Positions 3,939 through 30,271 of a stretch of 64,000 nt of DNA are shown one piece after another. Made by a program: the position numbers and the translations under genes. The notes beneath the pieces are model-generated. The model was not told the DNA's origin and searched no databases. It saw nothing but the letters and a program-made list of their open reading frames with translations. Each line of letters starts with the position of its first letter. The first letter of the stretch is position 1. Origin of the DNA: a virus; IMG/VR virus record IMGVR_UViG_3300032309_000911, positions 22,519-86,518 of that record; one strand, 5' to 3'.

Positions 3939-3939
3939 T

Positions 3940-6784: not shown

Positions 6785-6789
6785 TATCT

Positions 6790-6797
6790 TATAAATA
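6790..6797 (+). promoter_or_regulatory. Late promoter TATAAATA
   Basis: Exact consensus 9 nt before the gp25 ATG. Confidence 0.8.
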
Positions 6798-6806
6798 TTA
6801 ATACTT

Positions 6807-7232
6807 ATGCCAAATTACGATGCCTCTAGCACAAACAACAGTAAACGTGCTAATGTAAAATACAAAGATTTAGACTTGGATTTTGGCCGTAATGTAGTAA
6901 CTAGTGATGTAAATAAATTAACAGATGTTGAAGCTGTTAAAAGAAGTGTTAGAAATTTGATTAATACTTCTCATTTTGAAAGGCCTTTTCATCCTGAAAT
7001 AGGTTCTAGTGTTAGAGCTATGTTATTTGAATTAATGACACCTCTTACAGCATTAAACCTACAAAGAAAAGTACAAGAGGTTTTGGTAAATTTTGAACCT
7101 AGAATTAAATTAGTTCAAATTGCAGCAAGACCAAACTATGATAATAATGCTTATGATTTGACAATTTATTTTTATGTAATTGGTTCGAATGAATTGGTAA
7201 CAGTACAAACATTTTTAGAAAGACTAAGATAA
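6807..7232 (+). CDS. gp25: Baseplate wedge subunit gp25
   Basis: YKDLDL, AVKRSVRNLI, ERPFHPEIGS and FEPRI motifs. Confidence 0.95.
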   Translation: MPNYDASSTNNSKRANVKYKDLDLDFGRNVVTSDVNKLTDVEAVKRSVRNLINTSHFERPFHPEIGSSVRAMLFELMTPLTALNLQRKVQEVLVNFEPRIKLVQIAARPNYDNNAYDLTIYFYVIGSNELVTVQTFLERLR

Positions 7233-7233
7233 G

Positions 7234-9090
7234 ATGGCAAGTAATAAATTAGAAGTATCAGATTTTGATTTTGATAATATAAAAAGCAATTTAAGAACAT
7301 TTTTACAAAGTCAATCAGAATTTTCAGATTATAATTTTGAAGGATCTGGTTTTGCCGTTCTTTTAGACACATTAGCCTATAACACACATTATCTAGGATT
7401 CAACGCTAATATGTTAGCAAACGAAATGTATTTAGATAGTGCTGATATAAGAAAAAATATTGTATCTTTAGCAAAAATGTTAAATTATACTCCATCTTCT
7501 GTCAGAGCTCCTGTAGCAAATTTAAATATCACTGTCAATGATGCAACAGGGTCAACTTTAACATTATCCAAAGGAACAATATTTACAACTTCTGTTTTAG
7601 GAACAACTTATCAATATATAACAAATCAAGATTATACCATTTCTCCTGTAAATGATGTTTACAATTTTTCAAGTGTAAATGTTTATGAAGGAACATTGGT
7701 AACCTATAGATATACAGTAGATAAAAATGATCCTGATCAAAAATTTGTAATCAATAGTTTAAATGCTGACACAACGACACTAAAAGTTTCTATACAAAAC
7801 AGTTCTACAGATACAACTACAAATGTCTATTCATTAGCCGGTGGTTTTAATGGAGTAACAAGTACATCTAATGTTTATTTTTTACAAGAAGGAGAAGAAG
7901 GAAAATTTGAAATTTATTTTGGTGATGGTGTTATAGGTTCTTCTTTATCTGATGGTAATATCATAATATTAGAATATATTGTTACAAACAGAGATCAATC
8001 AAATGGTGCATCTTCTTTTACATTGTCAACTACGATTGGTGGATTTTCGGACATATCTATAGTTACAAATTCAGCATCACAAGGTGGAACAACGGCAGAA
8101 TCTAAAGAGTCAATTCGTTTCAATGCACCTTTAAATTATGCAGCTCAAAACAGAGCTGTAACAACAACTGACTATGAAACGATTGTCAAATCAATTTATC
8201 CAAATGCTTTATCTGTAAGTGCTTGGGGCGGAGAAAATGATGAGACGCCTGTTTATGGTGTTGTAAAAATTGCTATAAAAGCAAAAAGCGGTTCTACACT
8301 TACAAATACAACAAAAGCAAGTATAGTTACAGCATTAAAACCTTACAATGTTGCTTCTGTAAGGCCTGTTATTGTAGATCCTGAAAAAACTTCTATTTTA
8401 ATTACAAGTAATGTAAAATATGATTCAAGATTAACAACAAAAACTTCTGACACTTTAAAATCGGACGTTATTAATACTTTAACAAATTATAACACAGATA
8501 CATTACAAAAATTTGATGGCATATTCAGATATTCCAAAGTTGTAGGTTTAATAGACAATACTGATACTAGTATAGTATCAAACATAACTACTATTAAAAT
8601 ACGAAAAAATTTTACTCCAACTTTAAATTCTTCTACAAGATATGATATCTATTTTAGAAACTCTTTATACAATCCTGTATCTGGTTATAATGCTTCTCAA
8701 GGAGGAATTTTAGAATCAAGTGGTTTTAAAATTAATGGTGATACAACAAACGTTTATTACTTAGATGATGATGGCGTTGGAAATATAAGAAGATATAGAT
8801 TATTGAATGGTGTTAGAACATATGCTAATAATACTCAAGGAACAATTAATTATTCTACAGGCCAAATTACATTAACATCTTTAAATATAACTAATGTAGA
8901 AAATATTAGAAATCAAACATCAACTGCAATTGAATTAACTGTTAAACCAAATTCTAATGATATAGTTCCTGTAAGAGATCAAATCGTAGAAATTGATATA
9001 CAAAATTCTTATATTACAGTTCAATCAGATGCTTTTGTTGGAGGTTCGGCAGAAGCAGGAGTAGGTTACACAACAACAACTAGCTATTAA
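7234..9090 (+). CDS. gp6: Baseplate wedge subunit gp6
   Basis: DFDNIKSNL, DYNFEGSG, LAYNTHY, FGDGVIG and QNRAVTTTDYE motifs. Confidence 0.95.
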   Translation: MASNKLEVSDFDFDNIKSNLRTFLQSQSEFSDYNFEGSGFAVLLDTLAYNTHYLGFNANMLANEMYLDSADIRKNIVSLAKMLNYTPSSVRAPVANLNITVNDATGSTLTLSKGTIFTTSVLGTTYQYITNQDYTISPVNDVYNFSSVNVYEGTLVTYRYTVDKNDPDQKFVINSLNADTTTLKVSIQNSSTDTTTNVYSLAGGFNGVTSTSNVYFLQEGEEGKFEIYFGDGVIGSSLSDGNIIILEYIVTNRDQSNGASSFTLSTTIGGFSDISIVTNSASQGGTTAESKESIRFNAPLNYAAQNRAVTTTDYETIVKSIYPNALSVSAWGGENDETPVYGVVKIAIKAKSGSTLTNTTKASIVTALKPYNVASVRPVIVDPEKTSILITSNVKYDSRLTTKTSDTLKSDVINTLTNYNTDTLQKFDGIFRYSKVVGLIDNTDTSIVSNITTIKIRKNFTPTLNSSTRYDIYFRNSLYNPVSGYNASQGGILESSGFKINGDTTNVYYLDDDGVGNIRRYRLLNGVRTYANNTQGTINYSTGQITLTSLNITNVENIRNQTSTAIELTVKPNSNDIVPVRDQIVEIDIQNSYITVQSDAFVGGSAEAGVGYTTTTSY

Positions 9091-11666: not shown

Positions 11667-13136
11667 ATGCCAGCAATTATAACAAATAAATTTAGAATAC
11701 ACAATAGTGAACAATTTGCAGAATCTTTTTCTGAACCAGCGTCTAATCTTTATTATCTAGGAATAGGTAGACCTCAACCATTTGCAACACAAACAAGAGG
11801 TGATCTAAGAACAGATAATCAAGGAACAGATAGTGCATCTATAACTCCAGCAGATAGTATATCGGAAGAATTTTATACATATGATGATTTGCTTGCTGTA
11901 AAAAAAATTACAGCATCAGACGTATCTTATGTAATACCTAGAAGAAACTGGACAACAGGAACAACTTACGACATCTATAGAAACGATTACGGCAATAGAA
12001 TTACAGGAACAACAACAACTCAAACTTCAAATAGTGGTGCAACAACTTTATTTGATGCTACTTTTTATGTTTTAACAGCAGATAGAAATGTTTATAAATG
12101 TTTAAACAATAATAACAATTCTGCTTCAACAACAGAACCAACAGGAACTTCTATTAATATTATAACAACAGCTGATGGTTATAAGTGGAAATATATGTAC
12201 ACTTTGACAGCTTCACAACAAGCAAATTTTTTATCAACAGATTTTATGGCTGTAGCAACAAATGCTACAGTATCATCCGCTGCTGTAGATGGCGCTATCA
12301 ACATTGTAAAAATTAAATCTGCTGGTTCAGGTGGAACAAACGGAACATATACAAGTATTCCAATTCGTGGAGATGGTTCTTCAGGAACAGTTACAGTTGT
12401 GGTTTCGGGTGGAGCAGTAACATCAGTTACTGTTACAAATATAGGAACAGGTTATACTATTGCTTATATTCGTAATGCAGATATAGTTTCTGCTGGTGCT
12501 ACAGGTTTATCAGGTGCTGAATTAGATTGTATTGTAGAACACAAAGGCGGACACGGTTTTGATGCTGTAAAAGAATTGGGTGGATTTTTTGTAATGTTAA
12601 ACGTAAATTTAGAAGGAACGGAATCTTCAAATACTGGAGATTTCACTTCTGAAAACGATTTTAGAAGAATAGTATTAATAAGAGATCCATATTCTAGTGG
12701 AACAGCTGCTAGCGCTACAACATTAAGAGCAACAAAAGCAGTTAGATTTGCTTCATCACCAACTCCAGGAACTTTTCAAGTAGATGAAAAAATATCTCAA
12801 GCGACAACAGGTGCTGTAGGAAAAGTTGTTGAGTGGGACGCTACTAATAGAATATTACATTACATACAAACTAGATTCAATGATGAGGGTCTTGATAGTA
12901 ATGGTAATTTAACAGCGTTTAGCGGAGCAAACGTTATTACAGGAGCAACTTCAAGTGCTACAGGAACTCCAAGTTCAGTTGCAAGTGAAACTGCCGACCA
13001 AATTACGTTTACTAATGGTTATAAAGGATCAGAGTTGGACAGACATAAAGGTGATGTGTTATATATTGAAAATAGAGCACCAATAACAAGAGCATCCGAC
13101 CAAACTGAGAATATTAAATTAGTAATTGAGTTTTAG
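11667..13136 (+). CDS. gp8: Baseplate wedge subunit gp8
   Basis: MPAIITNKFR, IPRRNW, VYKCLNN, DGYKWKYMY and QTENIKLVIEF motifs. Confidence 0.93.
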   Translation: MPAIITNKFRIHNSEQFAESFSEPASNLYYLGIGRPQPFATQTRGDLRTDNQGTDSASITPADSISEEFYTYDDLLAVKKITASDVSYVIPRRNWTTGTTYDIYRNDYGNRITGTTTTQTSNSGATTLFDATFYVLTADRNVYKCLNNNNNSASTTEPTGTSINIITTADGYKWKYMYTLTASQQANFLSTDFMAVATNATVSSAAVDGAINIVKIKSAGSGGTNGTYTSIPIRGDGSSGTVTVVVSGGAVTSVTVTNIGTGYTIAYIRNADIVSAGATGLSGAELDCIVEHKGGHGFDAVKELGGFFVMLNVNLEGTESSNTGDFTSENDFRRIVLIRDPYSSGTAASATTLRATKAVRFASSPTPGTFQVDEKISQATTGAVGKVVEWDATNRILHYIQTRFNDEGLDSNGNLTAFSGANVITGATSSATGTPSSVASETADQITFTNGYKGSELDRHKGDVLYIENRAPITRASDQTENIKLVIEF

Positions 13137-13144
13137 GGAGAAAT

Positions 13145-16100
13145 ATGCCAAGTCCAACAGACTTTAACCTTTCGCCTTATTTTGATGATTATAATGAGTC
13201 GAAAAAATTTCATAGAATATTGTATAGACCTTCTTTTGCTGTACAAGCTAGAGAATTAACACAATCTCAATCAATTCTTCAAAATCAAATTGAAAGAGTA
13301 TCCGATCACCTTTTTGAAAAAGGAACAATGGTTATTCCTGGTGAAATTGGATTTGATCTGAATTATTATGCTGTTAAATTAACATCTAAAACATATTCTT
13401 CAATATCAGATTATATTGGTAAACAATTAACAGGTGTTACATCAGGCGTTATAGGTATTTGTGTTAATGCTGTTGCTAATGATGGAACAGATCCTGATAC
13501 TTTATATGTAAAATACAATAAAACAGGAACAAATAATACTTCTGTTGCATTTTCTAACGGAGAAACAATTAATGCTACGGCAATCGGTAGCGTTACTGTT
13601 TTAGCATCAGCTGTTGTAAATTCTACAGCAACAGGTTCAGCAGCCAATATTGCAGAAGGTGTTTATTACATTAACGGTTTTCATGTATCTGTAACAGAAC
13701 AAACTTTAATTTTAGACAAATATACAAACACACCTAGTTACAGAGTAGGTTTAACTATTACTGAAAGTTTTATAACACCAAATGATGATGTCTCTTTAGT
13801 TGATAATGCTCAAGGTTCTTCAAATGCAAATGCACCAGGAGCTCATAGATTCAAAATAGATTTAACATTAGCTAAAAGAACATTAACATCAACTGATGAT
13901 TCTAATTTTGTAGAATTATTAAGATTATCAAATGGTATTAGATTAAATCAAGTTACTAGAACTAATTATGCTGTATTAGAAGATAATATGGCGAGAAGAA
14001 CGTATGATGAATCAGGAGACTACACTGTTAGAGATTTTGATTTAGATATTAGAGAACATATTGTTGATGGTAATAATAGAGGTATATACACTTTAGCACA
14101 AGGTGGAAATCCAGCAAAATTAGCGATAGGTGTTGGTCCAGGTAAAGCTTATGTTAAAGGATATGAAATAGAAACTATTGGAACAACTTTTATAGATTCT
14201 GATAAAGCAAGAGATTACGATTCCGAAAATAATTTTAATACAAGATTTGATGTAGAAAATTATGTTAATGTAACTAACGTATATGGAACTCCTGATATAG
14301 GATTTGTATCTAGCGATGTTGAGGCATTTAAAAATGTAAATTTATATGATACGGCAACATCTTCAAGAGGTACTGAACAATCTACAACAGGTGTAACTGT
14401 ACCACAAATAGGTAGAGCTAAATCAAAAGGATTTGAATTAAATAGTGGTACGGCAAGTTCTAATATATTTGCTAGCTCTTCTTTAACAAACGCTGTTTAT
14501 AAACATTATCTATTTGATATAGAAATGTTTACTCATTTAAATATTAAAACAGCAGTAGATTTTACCGATGGAGAAAAAGTAACAGGAGGAACTTCAGGTG
14601 CTTATGGATATGTTCAATCTTTAGATTCAACAAAATCTTCAGCAGTAACAAGTATTTCTGTTGCAAATCCTGGAGTTGTAACTTTAAGTTCACATTCTTT
14701 TAAAGAAGGACAACAAATTACTTTAACTGGTGGTTCTTTTAGTATTGACTCTGTTGCATATTCTAGCGGTACAGTATTTACTGTAAAAAATCCAACAACA
14801 AACACTTTTCAATTATATAATTCTGCCGGAACATCTACAGTAAACGTAACTGCTTATAGTTCAGCTCCAACAGCTGCACATGGAGTTGTTGTACTTAATA
14901 ATGTAACAGGAATTTTTGTTGCTGGTGAAACAATAACAGGAAACACTTCTTCATTAACAGCTGTTATTCAAGATAATAGATATGGATTTAATGGTGTACA
15001 AACTTTTGATTTTACTTCAGTAAAACAAATTGGTATGTCCGGTTCTCCAACATATACTTCTGATGTTTCTACAGATTCAACTTATGGTGATAATTATACA
15101 CTGTTTGGTTCATTGTCAGTAGCAAATAGTGGAACAACAGTTACAGGATTTGGTACACTATTTAGTGCTGAATTAAGAGTTGGAGATAGTATAACATTTA
15201 CTACTGATGCGGGAAGTTCTATAACTAGAATAATTGAATCTATTTCTTCCAATACAAGTTTACAATTATTAACTGCTGTTGGTGGTTCAGATGTATCTAC
15301 AAAAACAATTGCAGTTAGAAAACGAGGAAAATTACAAGGTTCAAATAAAAATATTTCAATATTTGAATTGCCTTATAGTGTTATAAAAACATTAAAAACT
15401 ACAGCTAATGGTGGAATTACAGATACAAATTTTAAAGTAAGACGACACTTTACAACAACATTATCTTCAGGAAGTGCAACAATAACTGCTGGAACAAATG
15501 AAATATTTTCAAGTTTAACTGAAAAAGATTTCTCTGTTTCTATAATGAGTATTGGTTCAGCAACAGCAGGTGCAGTAGGAGATGTTTTAAGTCTTTCAGG
15601 AAATAACCATAATGGTAGTGCTATATTTACATTAGGTGGTTCTCCTACAGGAAAAACTTTAACTTTAAATTTTGGAACAAATTATTCTAATGCTAAAATT
15701 AAAATATTAGCAACAGTTAATCGTTCAGTTGCAGGTTCCAAAACAAAAACACTTAATGCAAATTCTACAAAACAAGTATCTAGTCAATCAGAAATAGAAT
15801 CTGGTATTATTAGTTTAGGAAAAGCAGATATTTACGTTATTAATAATATTTACATGTCAGCAAATTTTTCAACTAATGCTACAACTTCAGATACAAATGT
15901 TACTGCTAGATTTATTTTAGATAACGGACAAAGAGATAATTTTTACGACATAGGTAGAATTAAATTAAAAACAGGAGCTATAACTCCAACTGGCCGTTTA
16001 TTAATAGATTTCGATTACTATTCTCATGGTTCAGGAGATTATTTTGACGTAGATTCTTATTCAGGTTCTTCTGATTATGAAAATATAACTGAATATACTT

Positions 16101-19451: not shown

Positions 19452-20813
19452 ATGGCTTATACTATAATAAACACCACTGATACACTAGAACAGATGCGAG
19501 TTAAGTTAAATAACTTGACTACTAATGATTTTGGTGATCCTTCAATTTTAGCTGGTGCAGGTATTACATCAACATCTATTACAGGTGCTGTCGTAGAATT
19601 AGCTAATGTTGCATATTCTCAAGCTGGTTTTCGTATTGAAGATTCTACTTCTTCTTTTCAACAAATTGGTGCTGGTCAAACTTTAAGAGTTTTAGGAACA
19701 TCAAATCAAATTAATGCTGTTGTAAGTGCTACAGATACTTTAACAATAAGTTTACCTAGTAACGTAACTATACCTAATAATTTAACAGCTAATGGTACAT
19801 TGCACACATTGGGTACAATAGAAATTAGTGGAAATAATATTAGATCAACAGATTCTACAACTGTTAGAATTAATGATTCTTTAAATGTAAACGGTAGTAT
19901 TTCAGCAACTTCTGTATCATCAACAGGCGCTGTTTCTGGTACAACTATAACAGGAACAGGTGCGGTTTCTGGTACAACTATTACAGGTTCTTCAACAATA
20001 CAAGGTACAGATTTAGTATTAACTTCAGGTGGAATAACTTTTGAAGGAGCAACCGATAACACATTTGAAACTACACTAGCGATTACAGATCCAACGCAAG
20101 ACAGAACAATTACAGTACCAAATATAACAGGTACTATTGTTACAACAGGAGATACAGGTACAGTTACTAGTACAATGATTGCTGATGGTACAATTGTAAA
20201 TGCGGATATTGCTGATGGAACAATTAGAGGTGCCAAATTAAATGTATCTTCAGATAGTGTAACTTTTGCTAACGTAACTGCTACTAATTTTACAGGAACA
20301 GCTTCAATAGCAACAACAGTTACTTTAAATGCGAATAATACGAATAATGAAACGGTTTATTTAACATTTTCAGATACCGCTACAGGTAATCAAACTTTAG
20401 AAACGGATACAAGTTTATCTTATAATCCTTCAACAAATATATTATCTACAACAGCTACTCAAGCACAATATGCCGATTTAGCTGAGATTTATGATACAGA
20501 TAAAAATTATGATATAGGTACAGTAGTTATGGTTGGCGGAAATAAAGAAGTTACAGAATGTTTTGTAGGTAAAAGAGCACTAGGTGTCATATCAGATAGA
20601 CCTGCTTTTTTAATGAACTCTAAAGCAAAAGGTCAACCAGTTGCATTAAAAGGACGTGTTAAAGTAAAAGTTACAGGCGATGTTAAAAAAGGCGATGAAT
20701 TAGTTGCAGGTAATGGTGGTTTTGCCACAACAATAAGTGAAGAATTTACAAAAGTATTTGCAATTGCTTTGGAAGATAATGATAAAGGACTTATCGAGGC
20801 AATTATACTATAA
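19452..20813 (+). CDS. Fibre/fibritin-like structural protein
   Basis: TDTLEQMRVKLN N-terminus, Thr/Gly-rich body, C-terminal YADLAE...GVIS...VALKGRV..KV.G.VKKGDELV module. Confidence 0.75.
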   Translation: MAYTIINTTDTLEQMRVKLNNLTTNDFGDPSILAGAGITSTSITGAVVELANVAYSQAGFRIEDSTSSFQQIGAGQTLRVLGTSNQINAVVSATDTLTISLPSNVTIPNNLTANGTLHTLGTIEISGNNIRSTDSTTVRINDSLNVNGSISATSVSSTGAVSGTTITGTGAVSGTTITGSSTIQGTDLVLTSGGITFEGATDNTFETTLAITDPTQDRTITVPNITGTIVTTGDTGTVTSTMIADGTIVNADIADGTIRGAKLNVSSDSVTFANVTATNFTGTASIATTVTLNANNTNNETVYLTFSDTATGNQTLETDTSLSYNPSTNILSTTATQAQYADLAEIYDTDKNYDIGTVVMVGGNKEVTECFVGKRALGVISDRPAFLMNSKAKGQPVALKGRVKVKVTGDVKKGDELVAGNGGFATTISEEFTKVFAIALEDNDKGLIEAIIL

Positions 20814-20837: not shown

Positions 20838-21284
20838 ATGATTGATGCTTTAAATGATGAATTAATATCTTTCACAAGATACGAAAATAATCAAATAATC
20901 TATATAGACAAAAACGGCAAAGATTACAAAGTTAAAGATGAAATAACTTATGGTAATTGGATTAAAAATTATAAAAATATTCCACATATAAAAGTTGAAG
21001 GATTAGAAGATAATAATTATCATCTTCAATTATTAAAACAATACAATTTGAATTTTAAAATGAAAAATGTGCACCTTTTTTATAATCAGTTTGGCGGGTT
21101 TTCTTTTCCTGAACATTCAGATGATATAGATGTATTATTGTGTGTTATTAAAGGTGGTAAAAAAGTATATACGGATAATTATCCTGTTTTGGTGAAAGAA
21201 GGACAAGCAATATCTATACCTAAAGGTGTCAAACATAGAGTTGAAAGTTTACCGTTTACTTGGGCATTAAGTATAGGATATTAA
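20838..21284 (+). CDS. Cupin/JmjC-like protein (probable Fe oxygenase)
   Basis: SFPEHSDDIDV (HxD), GGKKV, IPKGVKHRV and ALSIG, matching the cupin_4/ROX-like pattern. Confidence 0.75.
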   Translation: MIDALNDELISFTRYENNQIIYIDKNGKDYKVKDEITYGNWIKNYKNIPHIKVEGLEDNNYHLQLLKQYNLNFKMKNVHLFYNQFGGFSFPEHSDDIDVLLCVIKGGKKVYTDNYPVLVKEGQAISIPKGVKHRVESLPFTWALSIGY

Positions 21285-21293
21285 GTATAGGAT
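21266..21293 (+). repeat. Perfect tandem 14-bp duplication ATTAAGTATAGGAT
   Basis: Copies at 21266-21279 and 21280-21293. Confidence 0.9.
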
Positions 21294-21300
21294 ATAAAGA

Positions 21301-22338
21301 ATGAATTGGATGTTTTATATAAAGACAACTGAAACTTGTCAATTAAATTGCAAACATTGTTTCACTAGTGGTATTAATGGTAAAAAAATTTATTTTGATT
21401 ATTTTAAAACAATAGATTTTATAAAAAGATTCAGACAATATTTTGATAGTAACGAAGATTCTATTCATTTTGAATTTCATGGGGGTGAACCTTTTTTAGC
21501 ACCAGTATCTCACATGCAAAAAGTATATGATGAATGTAAAGATTTATGGAAAAATAGTACTTTTGGTATTACAACAAATTTAGTATTTAAATTAAAAGAA
21601 GAACACTATGAATTTATTAAGGGGCCTTTAAATAATCGTTTAGGTACAAGTTGGGATCCTAAAATAAGATTTGAAAATGATGCACAATATAATCTGTGGG
21701 AAAAAAACGTAAAAGATTTATTAAATAAAGGCGTTACAATAAAATTGTTTATCAGCGTAACTAAAGATACTATTAATATAGAACCTATTAAACTATTAAA
21801 ATGGATAAAACAATTAGGAGTACAAGAAATTTCTTTTGAAAGACTAACAGGTAATGGAAATGCAAAATTGCATCCTGAAATATTCCCTGATAACATAGAA
21901 CAGGATAAATGGTTTTTAAAAATGCACCATCAATCAAAAGAAAATAATTGTAGAAGTTGGTTTGATAATGAAACATTAGAAGTTATATACAGTAAGTTTG
22001 AAACAGGTTTTTTAAAAGGTGGTACTTTCTGTAGAGATTGTGAACAAAAGATTTTTACATTAAATGCTGATGGTACAATATCAGGTTGTCCAAATGCGGC
22101 GCCAGAGTTTCAATTTGGACACATAAATGACGATATTAAAAGTCTTATAAATAGTCCCAAAAGAATAGAAAACATCGCTTGTGAACGTGCAAGAAATCCT
22201 TTATGTTTTTCTTGTGAGGTTTTTGAGTTTTGTGGAGGTGATTGCCACCAACTTGCTTGGCAAGGTGATATATGTGGTGCACCAAAAAGTTTAATGAAAG
22301 AGTTAAAATTAGGTATAAAATATGGTAACATTAACTAA
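21301..22338 (+). CDS. Radical SAM/SPASM enzyme 1
   Basis: CQLNCKHC (CxxxCxxC), FHGGEP; C-terminal CRDC...GCP...CFSCEVFEFCGGDC...C. Confidence 0.93.
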   Translation: MNWMFYIKTTETCQLNCKHCFTSGINGKKIYFDYFKTIDFIKRFRQYFDSNEDSIHFEFHGGEPFLAPVSHMQKVYDECKDLWKNSTFGITTNLVFKLKEEHYEFIKGPLNNRLGTSWDPKIRFENDAQYNLWEKNVKDLLNKGVTIKLFISVTKDTINIEPIKLLKWIKQLGVQEISFERLTGNGNAKLHPEIFPDNIEQDKWFLKMHHQSKENNCRSWFDNETLEVIYSKFETGFLKGGTFCRDCEQKIFTLNADGTISGCPNAAPEFQFGHINDDIKSLINSPKRIENIACERARNPLCFSCEVFEFCGGDCHQLAWQGDICGAPKSLMKELKLGIKYGNIN

Positions 22339-22894
22339 TCCAGTTACGCCGCAAAATATAGTAGATAGATTTAAAGATTTGGTTACAGATGTAGCTAATA
22401 CAAGTATAATTTGGGGAACAGATAATAAACCATTTTCAGAAATGCCAGATGCTAATTACGCTGGTACAATATCAGGAACTACTATTAATGTTACTGGTTC
22501 TAATATTGCTATTACAGGAGATTTAATAACAGCTTCTACAATTAAATCTGTATTAGAAACAGAAACAGCTCTATATACAAATATTAGACAACAAAGAGCT
22601 ATACTAAATGTAACAGGTGGTGGAGGAAATACAGGATCGAGACCGACTCCAGGAATAATTTATGATCAAACAAATGTAGCTAATTTATCTGTAGATAATA
22701 GAGCATCGTTAGGATCCATTTCTAGTTCAAATGTAGATGCGGGACAAATAATAGACGATTTAAATTTAGAGACATATTTTGGAAATTTAGCAACGGCTTA
22801 TGATGCTGTTAGAACTACGGCCGTAACACAACAAATAGATGTATGTCATGCTAGTTGTCATAGTTCATGTCATGGATCAAGAGGAAGAAGATAA
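22322..22894 (+). CDS. Putative modification substrate: virion-like protein with C-terminal (CHxS)3 core
   Basis: T/N/G-rich body; all Cys and His residues lie in the C-terminal DVCHASCHSSCHGSRGRR; embedded among rSAM genes. Gene is secure, role is inferred. Confidence 0.7.
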   Translation: MVTLTNPVTPQNIVDRFKDLVTDVANTSIIWGTDNKPFSEMPDANYAGTISGTTINVTGSNIAITGDLITASTIKSVLETETALYTNIRQQRAILNVTGGGGNTGSRPTPGIIYDQTNVANLSVDNRASLGSISSSNVDAGQIIDDLNLETYFGNLATAYDAVRTTAVTQQIDVCHASCHSSCHGSRGRR

Positions 22895-23586
22895 TGAATA
22901 TAATTGAAACAATAGTTCCAATATCGATAGATAATTTAAAAAAACATTTTACGGACAAAGAAACATTTTATTTAATTGATTATAAAAATAGTGAATTGAA
23001 AGGTAAAAAATTATTAACATATTTAAGTAATTTAGACTTACCTTCCGATATCAAAGAGCCTGATTTGGAATTAATAAAAGAATATTTGCATAGCATTACT
23101 TTAGTTAATATTAATTCATTAGAAAACATTGTTATAGATATTCTTTTAGAATATAAAGGCATTTCTAAAACCAATAAGTATGAAACATTTATTAAAGAAA
23201 ATAAAGATATAATTTCTTTATGGTCTGATAAGTTAGACAGTTTAAGTGTATTCAACATGTATATTGTAAATTCTGATGAATTTAAACAATATGCCAATTC
23301 TTTTATAAAAGATGATACTGCAAGTTTAGAAGGTGTTAATTTTGTAAGTTTATTAAAACAAGAAAGATTTTATCTATTCTACAATAAACTAAATAGTAAT
23401 ATCAAATTCTATACTCATTATTTTAATGATTATATGTTTAGAGGTAAAAATCTTTATGAATTTTGGGCTACGTCCAAAAATCCTATGTTTTTATTAACTT
23501 GGGGAATAACACAAGGAAAAGGTAAAGATTATATAGAAGCTAAAATTAAAGATAAGGAAATTATAAAAAATGTTGCATTTATTTAA
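22894..23586 (+). CDS. Hypothetical protein of the rSAM operon
   Basis: TAATG coupling to the substrate-like gene supports a start at 22894 (MNIIETIVP). Confidence 0.8.
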   Translation: MNIIETIVPISIDNLKKHFTDKETFYLIDYKNSELKGKKLLTYLSNLDLPSDIKEPDLELIKEYLHSITLVNINSLENIVIDILLEYKGISKTNKYETFIKENKDIISLWSDKLDSLSVFNMYIVNSDEFKQYANSFIKDDTASLEGVNFVSLLKQERFYLFYNKLNSNIKFYTHYFNDYMFRGKNLYEFWATSKNPMFLLTWGITQGKGKDYIEAKIKDKEIIKNVAFI

Positions 23587-24655
23587 TAAAACATATTTAG
23601 AATTTGATGATAAAATAGAATTAAATTTTGATCGAGTAATTATTTCAGATGTAAATGGTGTAAATATATTGGATTCTTTAGATAAAGTTGTTCAAGGAAA
23701 ATTATTAAAATATGGTAAAAATTTAGACAATTTTAATTTTGTTAATTTAATAACTGAAATAAATTCTTATGGACAATCATCTAACAAAAAATTAGTAATA
23801 TATTGCGATAAGTTAAATTATATTAAATTCGCAACTAAATGGTTAAAAACAATATTGCCAAATTTAGATTTAAATAATTTTTCAAAATTAATAGAATTAA
23901 CAATTTATAAAGAAAGAATAATTAGTAATTCTCAAATGCAATCAGTAATACCTGTAAAACAAGATATTTTATGGGAAGGATTAGGAGATATATCATCTTC
24001 ATTTAATTCAATAACAGTTTCTAATGAAGATAGACAATCTATAAAAAATTTAAATTTAAAATATTCTTATGAATTTCTTTTAGCTGATCATTTTAGCGGG
24101 TCATCTAATTATACATCTTCACTTACAACAATAGTGCATTTATTTTTGCAAAGATGGTTTAAAGAGTTATTTAAAGATAATAGAGAAATGGTATTGTTAA
24201 ATCTTTTAAATAAAAATTTTCAAACAGCATTAAGTTTTACAGAAAGTAATATTGATTTAACTAAATCAAATCCTATAACTGGAGTTTCTTCTTTACAATT
24301 TTATTCTGATGAAAATATTTGGTCTAAAGAAAACTCATGTAAAGTTGAAGGATTAACACAAATACAAATAGATGGTTTACGAAATTTAGTTAAAAAAATT
24401 TACGGTGATGTGGAAGGCATGGAAATAGACAACGCTGTGTTTGGTATGCTTGATTATTTAGAATATGCAGCCAAAACTTCTATCACTACAGAAGAATTAA
24501 ATACTATATTAAATTATGTTGTAACAAATCCATTTGATACTTGTTTAATACCAAAATTTGATTTTCAAAATGTAAACTTTGTTTTTGTACAACACCTTTT
24601 AAATTTAAAGAGAGATAATAACACAGAGGTACTTACAAAGTTTAGATTATTATAG
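23570..24655 (+). CDS. Hypothetical protein of the rSAM operon
   Basis: 361-aa ORF, overlapping start, AAGGA Shine-Dalgarno; no family recognised. Confidence 0.8.
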   Translation: MLHLFNKTYLEFDDKIELNFDRVIISDVNGVNILDSLDKVVQGKLLKYGKNLDNFNFVNLITEINSYGQSSNKKLVIYCDKLNYIKFATKWLKTILPNLDLNNFSKLIELTIYKERIISNSQMQSVIPVKQDILWEGLGDISSSFNSITVSNEDRQSIKNLNLKYSYEFLLADHFSGSSNYTSSLTTIVHLFLQRWFKELFKDNREMVLLNLLNKNFQTALSFTESNIDLTKSNPITGVSSLQFYSDENIWSKENSCKVEGLTQIQIDGLRNLVKKIYGDVEGMEIDNAVFGMLDYLEYAAKTSITTEELNTILNYVVTNPFDTCLIPKFDFQNVNFVFVQHLLNLKRDNNTEVLTKFRLL

Positions 24656-24662
24656 GATTGCA

Positions 24663-25709
24663 ATGCGTGAATTTTTGATTGATCCTAAAAGAGATCCTGA
24701 ACAGGAATATACAATTCATTTATTTGAATTTTGTAATTTAAGTTGTGCTTTCTGTTGGCAAAATCATCAAGATAAAATAGGCATAGACACGGTTCTTGAT
24801 AAATTAGAACCTATTGAAAGATTTGTTAGTAAAGAATATAAAAATAAGATTACTCTTAATTTGATGGGTGGCGAAGTATTTGCGCCTAGTATTTATACTA
24901 AACAATTAAATGAAGCCTATAAACAATTATCTTTAGGCATTCAAAAAATTGCAGACAAATATAACAAACAATGTTCTTTAAATTGGGTGTCAAATTTAGT
25001 TACTGATAAGTTAGATTTGATTGAAGATTTATTACAATACTCCAAAGACAATCATATTAAAGCACGTTTAACAACATCATACGATCCTCGTGGCCGTTTT
25101 AATCCAAAACAATTCGAAGTGTTTAAAAAAAATGTAGATTATTTTAAAGATAGAGTAACGTGTTTTTCTTGTTTATTAACTAAACCAAATATAGAATATT
25201 ATTTAACTGAGGGTGATGAATATTTTGATTATCTTTATAACAATGGTAAATATATTTACTTTGATTATTATATGCCTGATGAACACGCTAAATTTAATAT
25301 GCCAAGTGATGAATTACTTTTAAAATTCTTTAAACATTGTGTTGACAAATATCCTAATGTGCATCCTGTAAAAGATTGGATTTTTAATAAAAAAAATTAC
25401 GCTTCATGTAGAGTTAGTAAATTGGTATTAGCTGATGGAACTTTATGTATGTGTGGCAACTTGGTACAAGACAAAAAATCATTAAGTATGTACAAATCGC
25501 CTATTAAACGTATGAACAATAATGAAATTGAAAACAAATTTTTAGAAAAATATAATTGTGCTTCTTGTGAGTTTTTGGATAGGTGTACATTAGGATGTTT
25601 TATGAATCACGATTACAAATATAAGGAGGAGCTGAATGAGTGTGTCTATAAACTTACGCACAGATATATCGAAGATGTACGAGTACAACGAGGATACATC
25701 GCTTATTAA
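24663..25709 (+). CDS. Radical SAM/SPASM enzyme 2
   Basis: CNLSCAFC, MGGE; C-terminal SC...LCMC...CASCEFLDRCTLGC...C. Confidence 0.92.
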   Translation: MREFLIDPKRDPEQEYTIHLFEFCNLSCAFCWQNHQDKIGIDTVLDKLEPIERFVSKEYKNKITLNLMGGEVFAPSIYTKQLNEAYKQLSLGIQKIADKYNKQCSLNWVSNLVTDKLDLIEDLLQYSKDNHIKARLTTSYDPRGRFNPKQFEVFKKNVDYFKDRVTCFSCLLTKPNIEYYLTEGDEYFDYLYNNGKYIYFDYYMPDEHAKFNMPSDELLLKFFKHCVDKYPNVHPVKDWIFNKKNYASCRVSKLVLADGTLCMCGNLVQDKKSLSMYKSPIKRMNNNEIENKFLEKYNCASCEFLDRCTLGCFMNHDYKYKEELNECVYKLTHRYIEDVRVQRGYIAY

Positions 25710-26208
25710 TATCAAATTACCTAAAAATATTGATGTTAAATTGGATAATCTTCCTGTAAAACAACCATATATTCCTAGAATATGTGGTAGACAAGCTCAC
25801 ATGTTTATTTGGTGGGGAACTAAAGAAACCGACCCGGACATTTATGAACAAACTTTAAAAAATAAAAATGAAGAACAATGGATAACTTGTGATGAAATTT
25901 GGAAATTAGAAAAAGGTATTTCCTCAATTCATATATATGACACTGAAATTATTGTAGGATGTGTTAAATATTCTGGTGTTTTGAAAAAAAAAACTATACA
26001 TGAAAGAAAAAAATTTATTAGACAAATGTGGAATGATATAGTAAGTATGTTTAAAGATAAAAAAATTATTGTTCCTGTAGGTTCATATTTAGAATATATA
26101 AGTTTGTCAATAAATTTAACAAAAATACAACACGAACCTTATCAAAAAAGATTTTTAAATCCATTAGGTTTTAAAAAACAAGGAAATTATTGGATAAGAT
26201 GGACCTAA
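25675..26208 (+). CDS. Hypothetical protein of the rSAM operon
   Basis: Overlaps both neighbours; start uncertain (25636 or 25675). Confidence 0.7.
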   Translation: MYEYNEDTSLINIKLPKNIDVKLDNLPVKQPYIPRICGRQAHMFIWWGTKETDPDIYEQTLKNKNEEQWITCDEIWKLEKGISSIHIYDTEIIVGCVKYSGVLKKKTIHERKKFIRQMWNDIVSMFKDKKIIVPVGSYLEYISLSINLTKIQHEPYQKRFLNPLGFKKQGNYWIRWT

Positions 26209-27290
26209 TAATTAAACCAACAGAATTGTGTAATTTTAAATGTACTTTTTGTTCTAGCACTAAAATAGCGGAACACAAAAAAGATGTATTATCGCTTGAA
26301 CAAATATTTACATTTTTAAAAAGATTTCCTCAAACAAGAACAATTATAGTTAATGGAGGCGATCCTTTAATGATGGAACCAGAATACTATTGGAAAATTA
26401 TTGAATGGTTGGATAAAAACGATTACGATACATCTATTGCATTAACTACAAATTTATGGCCATTCTATAAAAAACCAGACAAATGGGTTAATTTATTTAA
26501 CAATGAAAGAGTTGGTGTAACTACATCTTTTCAATATGGAGGTGGCCGTCTTAAAGGAGATTTAACAGAATTTACAGAAGAAGATTTTTGGAAATGTTCA
26601 AATGCTATGTTAGAATATTGTGGTTATAGGCCAGATTTTATATCTGTTATTGTTCCTGAAAACGAAAAAGATGCAATTAAAAATGTAGAACTTGCAAAAC
26701 GTATGAGTGAAGATATTGTACCTGATGGAACAATGCACAATTTTACACGTCATAGTAAGACTGGTGTGGAATGTAAATTAAATTATGCAATGTCTAGTGG
26801 CGATCAAGGTAAACCTTATTTGTTAAGTAAGATATATCAGATATACGTAGAAATATGGAAACGTGGTCTTGCACCTTGGGAATTTAATACAAAACAAATG
26901 ATACAAAGATTAAACAATGATAGAACATCTTGTCCTCAAAATCGCAAATGCGATACTGGAATACGTGCATTAAATCCTAGCGGAGATTATTATTCTTGTG
27001 GTGCTTTTGGTGATGATAAAGACAAAACCATAGATTTTGATAGAGAAATGAAAGGAGAGTTTTTTACTCCTTTACAAGATGATTTAAATTTGCTTAGTAT
27101 GAAGAAATCTTGTTTTACTTGTCCTATGTTTAATATATGTAATGGTTGCAGAAAAACAATTAAGGATTTTAAACATCACGGAGTTGTAGAAGAACATTGC
27201 AAACTTATGAAAACCATAGCACCGGACATAATTAAATCTAATGGACTAAATATTGAAGTAACACCTTATATAGATGAAAGTGTATTATGA
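26199..27290 (+). CDS. Radical SAM/SPASM enzyme 3
   Basis: LIIKPTELCNFKCTFC, NGGDP; C-terminal SCPQNRKC...YSC...CFTCPMFNICNGC...HC. Confidence 0.93.
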   Translation: MDLIIKPTELCNFKCTFCSSTKIAEHKKDVLSLEQIFTFLKRFPQTRTIIVNGGDPLMMEPEYYWKIIEWLDKNDYDTSIALTTNLWPFYKKPDKWVNLFNNERVGVTTSFQYGGGRLKGDLTEFTEEDFWKCSNAMLEYCGYRPDFISVIVPENEKDAIKNVELAKRMSEDIVPDGTMHNFTRHSKTGVECKLNYAMSSGDQGKPYLLSKIYQIYVEIWKRGLAPWEFNTKQMIQRLNNDRTSCPQNRKCDTGIRALNPSGDYYSCGAFGDDKDKTIDFDREMKGEFFTPLQDDLNLLSMKKSCFTCPMFNICNGCRKTIKDFKHHGVVEEHCKLMKTIAPDIIKSNGLNIEVTPYIDESVL

Positions 27291-27808
27291 TTAATGATTT
27301 TTTAACAAAAGGTTTTATTATATTAAATGATAAAGATCCTTTTAAATTTATAGATATCAATGATATACAATGGACTGATGCCGGTCATGTAGGTTTGCAA
27401 GTAGTTATTAAAGAAGAAAAAATACAAAATGAACTATTAACAACTCAAAAATATCTAGGTGAGAAATACGTAAAACAAATAGATTCGAATTACAAACTTG
27501 CTAATAAAATAGATTTAGTAAATGGCATGGATGAGGCTACTTTGGTTTGGCATAACGATTTAATAGAAGGACCAAATCTTTGCATTTTAACTTATTTTGA
27601 TGATATGGATGTTGATATTGGAGGTGCTATTTGTTTTAGAAAAACAGAAACAAAAGAAGATTTAATAAAACATTACCCTAAAAAAAATGATATTCTTATT
27701 ATGAATCAAAGTTTAAAATATGAACATATAGTTACACCTCTGAAATTAAAACTTCCTAGACGAGTGGCCAGTTTTAATTATTATATAGATGAAAGGTTGA
27801 CAAAATGA
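27287..27808 (+). CDS. 2OG-Fe(II) oxygenase
   Basis: WHND (HxD), GGAICF, YEHIV and RRVASF. Confidence 0.8.
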   Translation: MINDFLTKGFIILNDKDPFKFIDINDIQWTDAGHVGLQVVIKEEKIQNELLTTQKYLGEKYVKQIDSNYKLANKIDLVNGMDEATLVWHNDLIEGPNLCILTYFDDMDVDIGGAICFRKTETKEDLIKHYPKKNDILIMNQSLKYEHIVTPLKLKLPRRVASFNYYIDERLTK

Positions 27809-28383
27809 AAGAAGGATTTAATAATTTGTGGCCTACTATCATATTAAAAGATATTATAAAAGATAAACCATTATTAGATGATGTAACAAATTATACATTA
27901 ACAAAATATGGGTTAGATAATAAGATATCAGCAGATATTAAATATCAAAATCTATTTGATGATAATTATTATAACAAGTTTAGATACAACATAGTAATAC
28001 CTTTTTTTGAAAAATATTTGCAAGAAAATGTAGGTATTAGTTTGAAAGATAAAAAATATACTATGAGAGCATGGTTAACGGGTTATGGTGTTTCTTATTC
28101 TATGCCAAAACACAATCATTCAGGTTCTCATTTGAGTGCGGTATTTTATTTACTATCCGAAGATAATCATCTAGGAGGATCTTTAGTAATAAATGACCCT
28201 CGTTTTAATGCAAATAGAGGTTATACGCCTGATTTTAAAAAATGGTTTGAAAAAGAAATGTTTAATCCAAAAACAGGAGATATTTTAATATTTCCAAGTT
28301 TTACTTATCATAGTGTTGACACTTATTATGGAAAATTAAGATTAGCTATGCCTGTTGATCTAATATTATATAATGATGAATAA
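27805..28383 (+). CDS. 2OG-Fe(II) oxygenase, phage HxH type
   Basis: AW..., HNHSGSHLSAVFYL, DPR, PKTGDILIFPSFTYHSV and R. Confidence 0.85.
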   Translation: MKEGFNNLWPTIILKDIIKDKPLLDDVTNYTLTKYGLDNKISADIKYQNLFDDNYYNKFRYNIVIPFFEKYLQENVGISLKDKKYTMRAWLTGYGVSYSMPKHNHSGSHLSAVFYLLSEDNHLGGSLVINDPRFNANRGYTPDFKKWFEKEMFNPKTGDILIFPSFTYHSVDTYYGKLRLAMPVDLILYNDE

Positions 28384-29302
28384 TATAACAGTATCTATAA
28401 ATCCAAGTTATTTTTGTAATTTTAGATGTAATTTTTGTTATCTCGCAACTGAACAATTAGGTGATCAAAAAAAAATATCATTATCAATACTAGATAAAAG
28501 ATTAAAAGAAATTAGTAAAGTTAGAAATATAGAATGGGTTGATCTATATGGTGGAGAAATAGGCGCATTAAAAAAGGATTATTTTTATGGATTAAAAGAT
28601 GTAGTAAGAAAATATTACAAAGATAAAATTAATATAATAACCAATTATTCTATGTTACACGAAGGATTTTTTAAAGACGATTTTTATTTAAGTGTAAGTT
28701 ATGATTTCGAAGCAAGAGAAAAATCCGATTTAGTTTATAATAATATGTTTCAGAGTACGGTGCCTATTGCAGTATTAATACTTGCAAGTCAAAAGGTAAT
28801 AGAAATGAACGTAGATGATATGATAAACAAATTAAATCTTTGTTCTAGTATAGAAAGCGTGGAAATTAAACCATATTCAATAAATCAAGCAAATGAACAA
28901 TATGTTACACATAAAGATTTTGAATTGTTTGTGCAAAAATGGATTGAAAGTCCTGTAATAAAAAAATTTGATTTTATAAATGAAGGAAAAATAATTCAAA
29001 GTTTAAATAAAGAATACAACGCATTTTCAAACAATCATGTTTATATAACTCCTAATGGAAATTTTGCTGTATTAGAATTTGATAAAAATGATAAAGAGTA
29101 TTTTTTAGAATTAAGTTCTATTAAAGAATATATAAAATGGGCAGAACAAGAACCAATAAAAAATATTTCAGATATATGTAGAAAATGTAAATATTACGGT
29201 CATTGTTTAACTGAACATTATCGTTATGTAAAAGATTTAAATAACAGTTGTAATGGATATAAAGGATTATTAGAATATTATGGAAAAAGAATGGAAAATT
29301 AG
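28373..29302 (+). CDS. Radical SAM enzyme 4 with reduced SPASM-like tail
   Basis: CNFRCNFC, YGGE; C-terminal CRKCKYYGHCLTEH...C. Confidence 0.9.
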   Translation: MMNNITVSINPSYFCNFRCNFCYLATEQLGDQKKISLSILDKRLKEISKVRNIEWVDLYGGEIGALKKDYFYGLKDVVRKYYKDKINIITNYSMLHEGFFKDDFYLSVSYDFEAREKSDLVYNNMFQSTVPIAVLILASQKVIEMNVDDMINKLNLCSSIESVEIKPYSINQANEQYVTHKDFELFVQKWIESPVIKKFDFINEGKIIQSLNKEYNAFSNNHVYITPNGNFAVLEFDKNDKEYFLELSSIKEYIKWAEQEPIKNISDICRKCKYYGHCLTEHYRYVKDLNNSCNGYKGLLEYYGKRMEN

Positions 29303-29675
29303 ACAAGCATTATATCACAAATTAAATAGTGATTATACTGACGATCTAAAAAAGATAAAAATAGAAATAAGTAGCGATATTGTTGAAAATTGTATAAGAT
29401 ATTTTTATAATACCGATATGCCTTTTATATACCCGTCAAAAAGTTATGTGGTGGCCATTTGTTATGCCTATTGGTTATCAAAAGACTTTGGTGAAGATTT
29501 TTATGAATTGTTAAACGATAAAGATTTGTTATATGGAAACGACCCATATTTTAAAACATATGAAGAAGATACTAAAACGTATGATGAAATATTAAAAAAG
29601 GTTATGCCTCTTGATGAAAATAAAGGTATAGTGCCAGACATAAAGAATTATTATATGGCTGAATTTTTTATATAA
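29280..29675 (+). CDS. Hypothetical protein, last gene of the rSAM operon
   Basis: Overlaps rSAM4; YPSKSYVVAICYAYWL. Confidence 0.75.
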   Translation: MEKEWKIRQALYHKLNSDYTDDLKKIKIEISSDIVENCIRYFYNTDMPFIYPSKSYVVAICYAYWLSKDFGEDFYELLNDKDLLYGNDPYFKTYEEDTKTYDEILKKVMPLDENKGIVPDIKNYYMAEFFI

Positions 29676-29697: not shown

Positions 29698-29919
29698 GTG
29701 AATGATATGACAATTAATATAAACGGTAAAGAATATGACGAAACTAAGTTTGATGATATATTAAAAAATTACATTATAGCTAGACAAGAAATACAAAACA
29801 GTAGAGTTCGCATGATTATGGAACTTGAAAAAGTTGATGTTCTTACGAACTATTATAATGCTAAAATTAATGAAGAATTAAAAAAATTAGAAGAACCAAA
29901 AGAAGAAATAAAAGAATAA
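29698..29919 (+). CDS. Small coiled-coil protein
   Basis: ININGKEYD plus heptad repeat; start may be 29707. Confidence 0.75.
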   Translation: MNDMTININGKEYDETKFDDILKNYIIARQEIQNSRVRMIMELEKVDVLTNYYNAKINEELKKLEEPKEEIKE

Positions 29920-29923
29920 AAAA

Positions 29924-30271
29924 ATGGCAGGTATAGCAAACTTATCAATAGACGCCGGCGCTACATTTACAAGTGATGTATTAGTACAGAATGATGATGG
30001 TACTGCTTTTAATTTAACAGGTTATACAGCTCAAGGTAAAATGTCTCAAGGATATTCTGCCACATATCAAAGAGTATATTTTGATATTACTATCTATCAA
30101 GCTGATGGAATAGTAACAATAGGTTTAGATCCTGCAACAACTGCTCAGTTAGAGGATGGCCGTTGGGTTTATGATGTAGAAATAACTAATGTAGCCGATA
30201 GTACAGTAACACGTGTTGTTGAAGGTATTATTACAGTTTATCCAGGTGTAGTTTCTACTTACAATCCTTAA
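29924..30271 (+). CDS. Small virion adaptor-like beta protein
   Basis: ANLSIDAGATF, FNLTGYT, GRWVYDVE and TRVVEGIITVYPGV, a common phage family beside fibre genes. Confidence 0.75.
   Translation: MAGIANLSIDAGATFTSDVLVQNDDGTAFNLTGYTAQGKMSQGYSATYQRVYFDITIYQADGIVTIGLDPATTAQLEDGRWVYDVEITNVADSTVTRVVEGIITVYPGVVSTYNP

Follow-up and report, generated by a model that had tools for sequence, protein, structure and literature searches.

A radical SAM cassette around a protein with an invariant Cys-His tail: a candidate protein-maturation system of large phages and predatory Bdellovibrionota

The SPASM-type radical S-adenosylmethionine (rSAM) enzymes span a known range of chemistries that includes thioether, formylglycine-type and histidine cyclophane formation. 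Two of them, the anaerobic sulfatase-maturating enzyme and QhpD, modify a folded protein by way of a local motif, and in the pathways to pyrroloquinoline quinone (PQQ) and mycofactocin an rSAM/SPASM enzyme and oxidases act on an invariant peptide core, the precursors being short peptides served by a PqqD-type chaperone and a peptidase. Conceptually, the locus considered here comes nearest to the HXS antiphage system (effector HxsA, rSAM enzymes HxsB and HxsC, and HxsD), in which rSAM enzymes are reported to mature a retained HxS-repeat protein and a +8 Da change falls on one repeat (Li et al., Nat Commun 2026, PMC13128918). Here we describe a 12-gene cassette at positions 20838-29675 of a 64,000-nt stretch (the window) that forms part of an 86.5-kb virus record, IMGVR_UViG_3300032309_000911. 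Four rSAM enzymes, three oxygenase-type proteins and conserved helpers accompany a 190-residue protein with a Cys/His-rich C-terminal tail. On balance we lean towards reading this locus as a dedicated maturation cassette for the tail of a retained protein, probably one that works with fibres.

The open-reading-frame (ORF) listing of the window places the 12 cassette genes, together with the fibre-like gene before them and one putative regulatory site, as follows.

19452..20813, + strand: fibre-like protein, 453 residues, with a C-terminal Peptidase_G2 intramolecular-chaperone (IMC) domain (Pfam PF11962, E 2.1e-5; at 24.5 bits just short of the cut-off of 25)
20838..21284, + strand: candidate Fe(II) oxygenase of cupin fold (Cupin_2 at 26.2 bits, just under its cut-off of 27.2; the JmjC_2 match is weak)
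21301..22338, + strand: rSAM1, radical SAM/SPASM enzyme (CxxxCxxC; TIGR04085, 34.5 bits against a cut-off of 27)
22146..22153, + strand: TATAAATA, T4-type late-promoter consensus, within the rSAM1 gene and 176 nt before the tail-protein start
22322..22894, + strand: tail protein, 190 residues, presumed substrate (alpha/beta body and disordered C-terminal CHASCHSSCHGSRGRR)
22867..23586, + strand: p4, conserved uncharacterised protein, core member (phrog_20767)
23570..24655, + strand: p5, fast-evolving conserved uncharacterised protein, core member (BLAST and profile matches across loci)
24663..25709, + strand: rSAM2, radical SAM enzyme whose C-terminal Cys cluster is SPASM-like (motif and Pfam; TIGR04085 below cut-off)
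25636..26208, + strand: p7, accessory uncharacterised protein, limited to part of the T4-like group
26190..27290, + strand: rSAM3, radical SAM/SPASM enzyme, the most conserved of the set (TTG start; Pfam Radical_SAM above cut-off)
27287..27808, + strand: 2OG-A, 2-oxoglutarate (2OG)-Fe(II) oxygenase, accessory (PF13640, 24 bits against a cut-off of 27)
27805..28383, + strand: 2OG-B, 2OG-Fe(II) oxygenase, accessory (PF13759, 43.1 bits against a cut-off of 27)
28373..29302, + strand: rSAM4, radical SAM enzyme in which just four C-terminal Cys are conserved (CxxxCxxC; Pfam 29.4 bits)
29280..29675, + strand: p12, conserved uncharacterised protein, core member (phrog_20737)

All 12 cassette genes are co-oriented and 9 of their 11 junctions overlap, much as described in an earlier note made from the letters of this DNA, which had counted 11 genes while itself listing 12. 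That note's placement of the block in the virion morphogenesis region also holds: the cassette follows the baseplate genes gp6 and gp8, a 2027-residue DUF4815 protein and the 453-residue fibre-like protein, and is itself followed by glycosyltransferases and collagen-like fibres. No transporter or peptidase had been visible in the operon, and a Pfam scan of the 12 ORFs likewise matched neither kind of family.

The enzymes and the tail protein travel together across phages. Among 185 rSAM1 relatives in IMG/VR, 80 loci were fetched, and co-occurrence was assessed over 82 loci plus the window (83 sequences). An ORF ending in CHxxCHxxCHxxRxRR-stop is present in 73 of the 83, once in 69 and twice in four. 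The ten sequences lacking it comprise five that are cut directly after rSAM1 and five that are rearranged; in all three rearranged records searched, two tandem tail genes (124 and 127 residues) follow immediately on a fibre gene, a short way beyond the part that was fetched. A locus was counted as full-length if the rSAM1 start was followed by at least 10.5 kb. In the 53 such loci the four rSAM genes occur without exception, and all eight core genes (rSAM1-4, tail protein, p4, p5 and p12) were recovered by BLAST in 44, most misses being genes past the locus end. The tail protein is never absent from a complete cluster. Had rSAM clusters routinely lacked the Cys/His-tailed gene, the earlier note's interpretation would have been refuted; the converse was found. 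The core set recurs in T4-like aquatic phages and in jumbo phages, with rSAM1 encoded at 40-52% identity in 15 records of cultured jumbo phages (Ralstonia RSF1/RSL2/FLC4, Burkholderia FLC6/FLC8/S13, Agrobacterium Atu_ph07, Sinorhizobium Phosso and Pseudomonas pPa_SNUABM_DT01). RSF1 and Atu_ph07 retain the order cupin, rSAM, tail protein, and their tails read CHSSCHSSCHGSRGRR and CHSSCHASCHNSRSRR, respectively.

Conservation within the tail protein is concentrated at its C-terminus. The window protein ends in DVCHASCHSSCHGSRGRR, of which CHASCHSSCHGSRGRR constitutes the tail. Across an alignment of 28 tail proteins, with lengths of 124-295 residues and bodies down to 21% identity, the only invariant columns are C175, H176, C179, H180, C183, H184, R187, R189 and R190. 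The fourth position of the repeat unit is usually Ser and may also be Asn, Gln or Ala, so that the Cys/His tail of the earlier note is retained while its strict CHxS repeat is relaxed to CHxx. AlphaFold2 (AF2) predicts a confident alpha/beta body (pLDDT 87.2, pTM 0.79), with the tail at low confidence from approximately residue 176. Foldseek against the PDB returned no match to the body at E<=0.001, and the best VIA wide match (Z 4.3, rmsd 5.1, 143 aligned residues) was no convincing solved relative. Matches in BFVD were restricted to uncharacterised family members and three uncharacterised proteins of 504-660 residues. The family forms 324 clusters at 90% identity, similar in length and none named. 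A tblastn search of the phage collection with the window tail protein gave no match; the tail may be masked as low complexity in such searches, as is suggested by alignments that stop at residue 170 of 186.

The carrier of the tail is thus a folded protein of at least 124 residues. The shortest complete carriers have 124-127 residues, and six shorter database matches look like fragments; accordingly, no short precursor of the type used for ribosomally synthesized and post-translationally modified peptides (RiPPs) was found in phages. Three longer forms carry a fused or inserted Gly_rich_2 domain, which indicates that the body tolerates large surface insertions; the domain (PF21722) stands at the N-terminus or after the first helix in the metagenome proteins P0121 and P0123 (forms of 374-461 residues). 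The label 'RiPP-like' originally given to the operon is therefore a poor fit, since the core is invariant and its carrier folded, whereas the accompanying suggestion that a retained protein is modified gains from the lack of a short precursor, transporter or peptidase in phages. With the ranthipeptide and SCIFF thioether maturases of the PapB/CteB type the cassette shares the Cys spacing CxxxCxxxC; it departs from them in its invariant core, in having no short precursor, and in the lack of an acidic acceptor residue after the Cys.

The tail gene also stands apart in its upstream DNA. In 65 of 73 loci the T4-type late-promoter consensus TATAAATA precedes the tail-protein gene at a distance of no more than 400 nt, although these loci are related and the 65 cases are not 65 independent events. 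Corresponding counts are 1/73 for the cupin, 1/79 for rSAM1, 0/68 for p4, 1/60 for p5, 7/61 for rSAM2, 0/29 for p7, 0/61 for rSAM3, 1/48 for 2OG-A, 3/38 for 2OG-B, 0/57 for rSAM4 and 1/51 for p12 (loci L001 and L002, minus-strand matches and genes with less than 400 nt upstream were left out). The site mostly lies 176-200 nt upstream, within coding region; in the window it begins at 22146, written in the rSAM1 codons for Leu-Ile-Asn-Ser. Its position, -176 to -201 in most related loci, moves to -13, -34 or -97 in other lineages, which argues for selection on the DNA motif. The tail-protein gene thus has its own putative T4-type late promoter, specifically kept, and a consensus on this gene alone fits a stoichiometric product served by catalytic enzymes. 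The late-promoter variant previously noted at 20823 is indeed present, reading TAATAAATA, but carries less weight than supposed, as TATAAATA is not enriched in the window overall (21 found against 20.45 expected). Given strict co-occurrence, invariance confined to the tail, the separate promoter and the kind of enzymes involved, the tail is probably the substrate of the cassette, and we hold this part of the proposal with reasonable confidence.

In translation, each of the four rSAMs carries CxxxCxxC in its first ~25 residues and is rich in Cys towards the C-terminus. Only rSAM3 passes the cut-off of Pfam Radical_SAM (PF04055, 29.5 bits), with 36.4 bits compared to 29.4 for rSAM4, 27.0 for rSAM2 and 22.7 for rSAM1; all four match phrog_1802 in PHROGs (E 1.3e-68 to 7.5e-28). 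From motif and family matches, the four enzymes are members of the radical SAM superfamily. The SPASM-type tail that had been assigned to each of them is less uniform than the motif: the SPASM domain model TIGR04085 (cut-off 27 bits) is exceeded by rSAM1 only (34.5 bits), with rSAM3 (24.7) and rSAM2 (20.1) below and no match for rSAM4. Eight C-terminal Cys are invariant in rSAM1 (17 sequences), and C249, C299, C302, C308, C312 and C327 are conserved in rSAM2. The C-terminal Cys of rSAM3 are conserved despite its score, while only four are conserved in rSAM4. rSAM3 shares 63% identity with its Atu_ph07 orthologue.

The paralogues were placed in a quick maximum-likelihood tree of 78 rSAM-like ORFs (270-450 residues with CxxxCxxC) from 14 loci and the window. 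It resolves rSAM1 (17 rows, support 98), rSAM2 (18 rows, support 99), rSAM3 (15 rows, support 99) and rSAM4 (13 rows, support 99), each clade containing T4-like phage, jumbo-phage, Bdellovibrionota and Bacilli members, the last from a metagenome-assembled genome (MAG). Four separate, supported clades indicate that rSAM1-4 are not recent duplicates and that each paralogue has been kept separately. A fifth rSAM-like group, not in the window, was seen in RSF1, in rearranged marine phages with up to five extra copies and in Bdellovibrionota (examples are L002:12832-13935, L079:14442-20017, and L093:8542-9531 and 13136-14218). B12-binding rSAM genes also form part of the cluster in L095 and L118.

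Among protein families, the rSAMs come closest to PapB, the anaerobic sulfatase maturase, DynA, DarE, cyclophane formers and HxsB/HxsC. Specifically, the best NCBIfam match of rSAM1 is PapB (NF047865, E 5.6e-15), at 55.4 bits against a cut-off of 340 and hence short of membership. The sulfatase maturase model TIGR03942 (cut-off 349) aligns with rSAM1 over residues 9-317, its whole length (E 2.7e-12), again short of membership at 46.5 bits for rSAM1, 39.3 for rSAM3 and 49.6 for the Bdellovibrionota rSAM1. The second-best solved sequence is 5wgg (E 2.4e-5), which we take to be the thioether synthase CteB. Grouping with cofactor- or nucleotide-modifying rSAMs would have spoken against a peptide or protein substrate; the best matches, far below cut-off as they are, fall instead among peptide- and protein-modifying SPASM enzymes. 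None of rSAM1-4 has an N-terminal recognition domain: in each of them CxxxCxxC begins by about residue 25. Such a domain is likewise lacking in enzymes that modify a protein by way of a local motif. In this respect the cassette resembles the sulfatase maturase and QhpD, which act on a protein rather than a leader peptide. Those systems pair one enzyme with one substrate, however, whereas here four to nine paralogues and three uncharacterised helpers surround one tail. When rSAM1 was modelled together with tail residues 156-190, three 4Fe-4S clusters and SAM, the complex scored 0.03 against a mark of 0.32, a result that weighs neither way.

Comparison with HXS yields a similar mixture. Both systems have several rSAMs and, on the reading favoured here, a retained protein to be matured, which in HXS has His-x-Ser repeats in a basic context. 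Scores for the HXS families fall short of membership (rSAM1 with HxsB, E 1.1e-11, 44.2 against 370 bits; rSAM3 with HxsC, E 4.1e-8, 32.5 against 268 bits), and NCBIfam identified no relative of HxsA or HxsD in the cassette. The cassette differs in its invariant Cys and His with a period of four at the extreme C-terminus, in its four or more rSAMs and additional oxygenases, and in its carriers, which are phages and predators rather than a defence island.

Among 40-58 homologues, at least 95% keep the metal-binding His/Asp residues of the oxygenase-type proteins. H93, D95 and H133 of the cupin are conserved at this level among 58 homologues, as are H89, D91, H147 and R158 of 2OG-A among 40 sequences, despite its PF13640 score of 24 against 27 bits. 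With an HxD...H triad, a 2OG-binding Arg and Pfam matches, 2OG-A and 2OG-B are identified from sequence as 2OG-Fe(II) oxygenases. The cupin is present in 49 of the 53 full-length loci, 2OG-A in 42 and 2OG-B in 34, and the 2OG oxygenases vary in number and position between loci.

Three uncharacterised proteins, p4, p5 and p12, belong to the core set. Jumbo phages and Bdellovibrionota both have loci with p4 orthologues (E 1e-39 to 1e-66), and p4 has 487 representatives in a library at 50% identity; long p4 forms (391-604 residues) have an additional N-terminal part consisting of low-complexity sequence only. p5 has BLAST matches in 48 of the 53 loci and hidden Markov model (HMM) matches in nine Bdellovibrionota loci and RSF1, and p12 is present in 49 of the 53, with HMM matches in ten Bdellovibrionota loci and the Bacilli MAG locus. 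p7, by comparison, occurs in 23 of the 53, and its HMM matched nothing in any jumbo-phage or Bdellovibrionota locus. NCBIfam returned no match for the tail protein, p4, p5, p7 or p12, nor for the bacterial tail protein, p4, p5 or p12, and p5 has no relative in Pfam, NCBIfam or the PDB. Profile searches of PDB sequences with p4 and p5 gave nothing; p12 gave a single pentatricopeptide-repeat match that contained no valid stretch and was set aside. The AF2 model of p4 (pLDDT 82.6) had no Foldseek match among solved folds and a best VIA wide Z of 4.5 over 55 residues, blank searches that, as for the tail protein, do not establish a new fold. In the ESM Atlas the best p4 match (0.82) lay under the useful range and p5 matched nothing. 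A relation of p4 or p5 to rSAM1 was tried with hhalign and rejected. Across profile, Foldseek and VIA wide searches, no recognisable peptide-recognition fold emerged in p4, p5 or p12.

The kit, first described as phage-encoded, is not specific to phages. Scanning one genome per species for the tail protein gave 15 confirmed loci, distributed over ten Bdellovibrionota MAGs, one Bacilli MAG, one Vicingus contig and three phage-like contigs in other bins. In Bdellovibrionota, rSAM1-4, p4, p5 and p12 are found among ordinary chromosomal genes (2-oxo-acid dehydrogenase E1, NrdR, YceI, ABC transporters and a helicase), and two of these loci lie on contigs of 2.45 and 2.84 Mb. Of 401 genomes sampled from the phylum, 15 contain the DNA pattern for CHxxCHxxRxRR-stop and none matches a reversed control. 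Six pattern loci were fetched and five contain the cassette; the match in genome G139 (L115) has no cassette around it and was rejected as a false positive. Among the bacterial tails, one variant has four CHxS units (L096:120-761), and in two others (L101:3579-4361 and L102:4060-4566) an insertion of 10-20 residues splits the first Cys-His unit from the last two. In L116, from one Bdellovibrionota chromosome, a 2360-residue protein with RCC1 repeats and a Big_2 domain (1869-8948) lies between rSAM1 and p4.

Fibre genes recur beside the cassette in both settings. A homologue of the IMC-domain fibre gene at 19452..20813 is found in 69 of the 78 phage loci with at least 2.5 kb upstream, and Peptidase_S74 chaperone-domain proteins stand beside the cassette in five Bdellovibrionota loci (L092, L095, L117, L118 and L119). 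With only a handful of such genes per 2-4 Mb genome, S74 neighbours in five of nine genomes are far above chance. One of them, in Pseudobdellovibrio (L095:17696-18751), joins a pilin-type N-terminal methylation motif to a C-terminal Peptidase_S74 domain and looks like a pilin-anchored phage-type fibre. It is from this gene neighbourhood that the link between cassette and fibres is drawn. A separate family of ~200 residues ending in GRHWVKVK is encoded in L092, L095, L114, L117, L118 and L119 (e.g. L114:5113-5700) and adjoins an S74 fibre-like gene beside the cassette in five of these six loci; it matches no Pfam or NCBIfam model, and neither the phage loci nor the window encode a relative.

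Several observations weigh against a dedicated maturation cassette for the tail of a retained, fibre-associated protein. All of the support is comparative. The rSAM family scores lie far under every curated cut-off (PapB, 55 against 340 bits), and the chemistry is for this reason unreadable from homology. The S74 count (15 matches in total, eight within ~11 kb of the tail gene) comes from five Bdellovibrionota genomes chosen because such neighbours had been seen, and four further cassette-bearing genomes have no S74 neighbour within 10 kb. The tail protein is a 'hypothetical protein' in all 14 annotated phage records examined, where its neighbours are labelled virion structural, and the FLC6 and S13 papers, in their accessible parts, omit it from the structural proteins. 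The tail could itself be a metal site rather than a substrate. Finally, two ABC exporter half-transporters directly follow p12 in L117, implying export there, and two M10-type peptidases flank the cluster in L114, implying processing there; each arrangement occurs in one scanned Bdellovibrionota locus, and together they weaken the case for protein retention.

Such neighbours would suit a precursor role for the tail, whose last ~16 residues, or part of them, would be modified, cut and released as a small metal-binding or redox molecule while the body serves as scaffold. An invariant core with a variable body follows the pattern of peptide-derived cofactors such as PQQ and mycofactocin, which share with the cassette a core at or near the C-terminus and the combination of rSAM/SPASM with oxygen-dependent enzymes, and many oxidative enzymes are indeed gathered around one short stretch. 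However, the short precursor, PqqD-type chaperone and peptidase of those pathways were not found here: the 12 window ORFs gave no peptidase or transporter match, the recurrent genes of the 80 phage loci include neither, and the carriers are always folded, with at least 124 residues and sometimes extra domains. The exporter and the peptidases were each met in a single locus among those scanned. We regard release of a small molecule as quite unlikely.

The fibre neighbourhood could instead reflect a tail that binds metal or docks, either at the three-fold axis of a fibre or to the Fe-S enzymes, with the rSAMs acting on the fibre protein or on a small molecule. With its three Cys, three His and basic end the tail resembles a metal site, IMC-domain fibre genes are the most constant outside neighbours in phages and feature in several Bdellovibrionota, and the helpers p4, p5 and p12 offer no recognisable fold for recognising a peptide. 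A plain metal site, though, needs no such strict co-occurrence with four to nine rSAM genes, and the fibre neighbours are absent in RSF1 and in four of nine Bdellovibrionota genomes, whereas the tail protein is never missing from a complete cluster. This alternative is, in our estimation, unlikely.

That none of the 14 annotations calls the tail protein structural suggests a further alternative, in which the modified protein is not in the particle and acts in or on the infected or attacked cell, against host defence or on DNA through its basic, His-rich tail, in the manner of the HXS effector. HxsA offers a precedent, being described as a retained, DNA-binding protein whose HxS repeats are basic and which rSAM enzymes mature (PMC13128918), and both kinds of carrier, lytic phages and Bdellovibrionota, attack Gram-negative cells. 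The late-promoter consensus before the tail gene, the location of the block among baseplate and fibre genes, and the existence of Gly_rich_2 fusions all fit this poorly, and similarity to HxsB and HxsC is no better than to other SPASM families, with nothing like HxsA or HxsD present. An intracellular role therefore seems distinctly unlikely.

Under the favoured reading of a retained, matured protein, the tail protein would be made late from its own T4-type promoter, and its folded body would present a flexible, invariant C-terminal tail, (Cys-His-x-x)x3-Arg-x-Arg-Arg. Four non-redundant rSAM paralogues, aided by p4, p5 and p12, may then abstract hydrogen atoms from tail residues and introduce covalent changes of the SPASM kinds, whether Cys thioether links, Cys oxidation or cyclophane links at His carbons, with the cupin and the variable 2OG oxygenases possibly contributing oxygen-dependent steps. 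The product would remain a protein, with no peptide release, as suggested by the folded, domain-accepting carrier and by phage loci free of peptidases and transporters. It would probably work with the neighbouring trimeric IMC-domain fibre in the phage adsorption apparatus, and the bacterial counterpart kit adjoins pilin-like fibres of predatory Bdellovibrionota. A bolder extension, speculative and rather improbable, is an rSAM-built 'rivet', in which the Cys-His units become covalent or metal-bridged links that fasten an adaptor to the trimeric fibre after the IMC domain leaves.

In the surroundings of the cassette, two small genes (73 and 115 residues, 29698-30271) are conserved neighbours in 19 and 25 loci; TATAAATA lies upstream in every such locus, and neither gene has a family match above threshold. 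DNA near-identical to 20838-29675 comes mainly from freshwater metagenomes (shares of 0.39-0.54 in several studies), and megablast of the whole block against the phage collection gave no match. The pelagimyophage paper (PMC7029224) reports that its freshwater genomes are without radical SAM proteins, whereas this freshwater window has them. Cassette and rSAM genes appear in the available portions of the FLC6 and S13 papers as annotation lists only, and the PaBG paper makes no mention of 'radical SAM'.

Protein maturation by rSAM enzymes is known from a few bacterial systems. Our searches of the literature on phage radical SAM, RiPP, jumbo phage and Bdellovibrio SPASM topics returned no description of this kit, in agreement with the earlier note, which knew of no characterised phage system with this architecture; nor did they return any phage example of rSAM protein maturation, or any case of a single invariant 16-residue tail served by four or more rSAM paralogues. 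The kit is widespread, its carriers being abundant phages of aquatic habitats, jumbo phages that infect plant pathogens, and predatory bacteria, and several carriers can be cultured (RSF1/RSL2, FLC6, S13, Atu_ph07 and pPa_SNUABM_DT01). If the tail is modified, there would be a new post-translational chemistry to define and a new step in the making of phage, and possibly predator, attachment organelles. Should the 'rivet' prove true, large phages and predatory Bdellovibrionota would share one pathway for finishing the appendages that seize Gram-negative cells.

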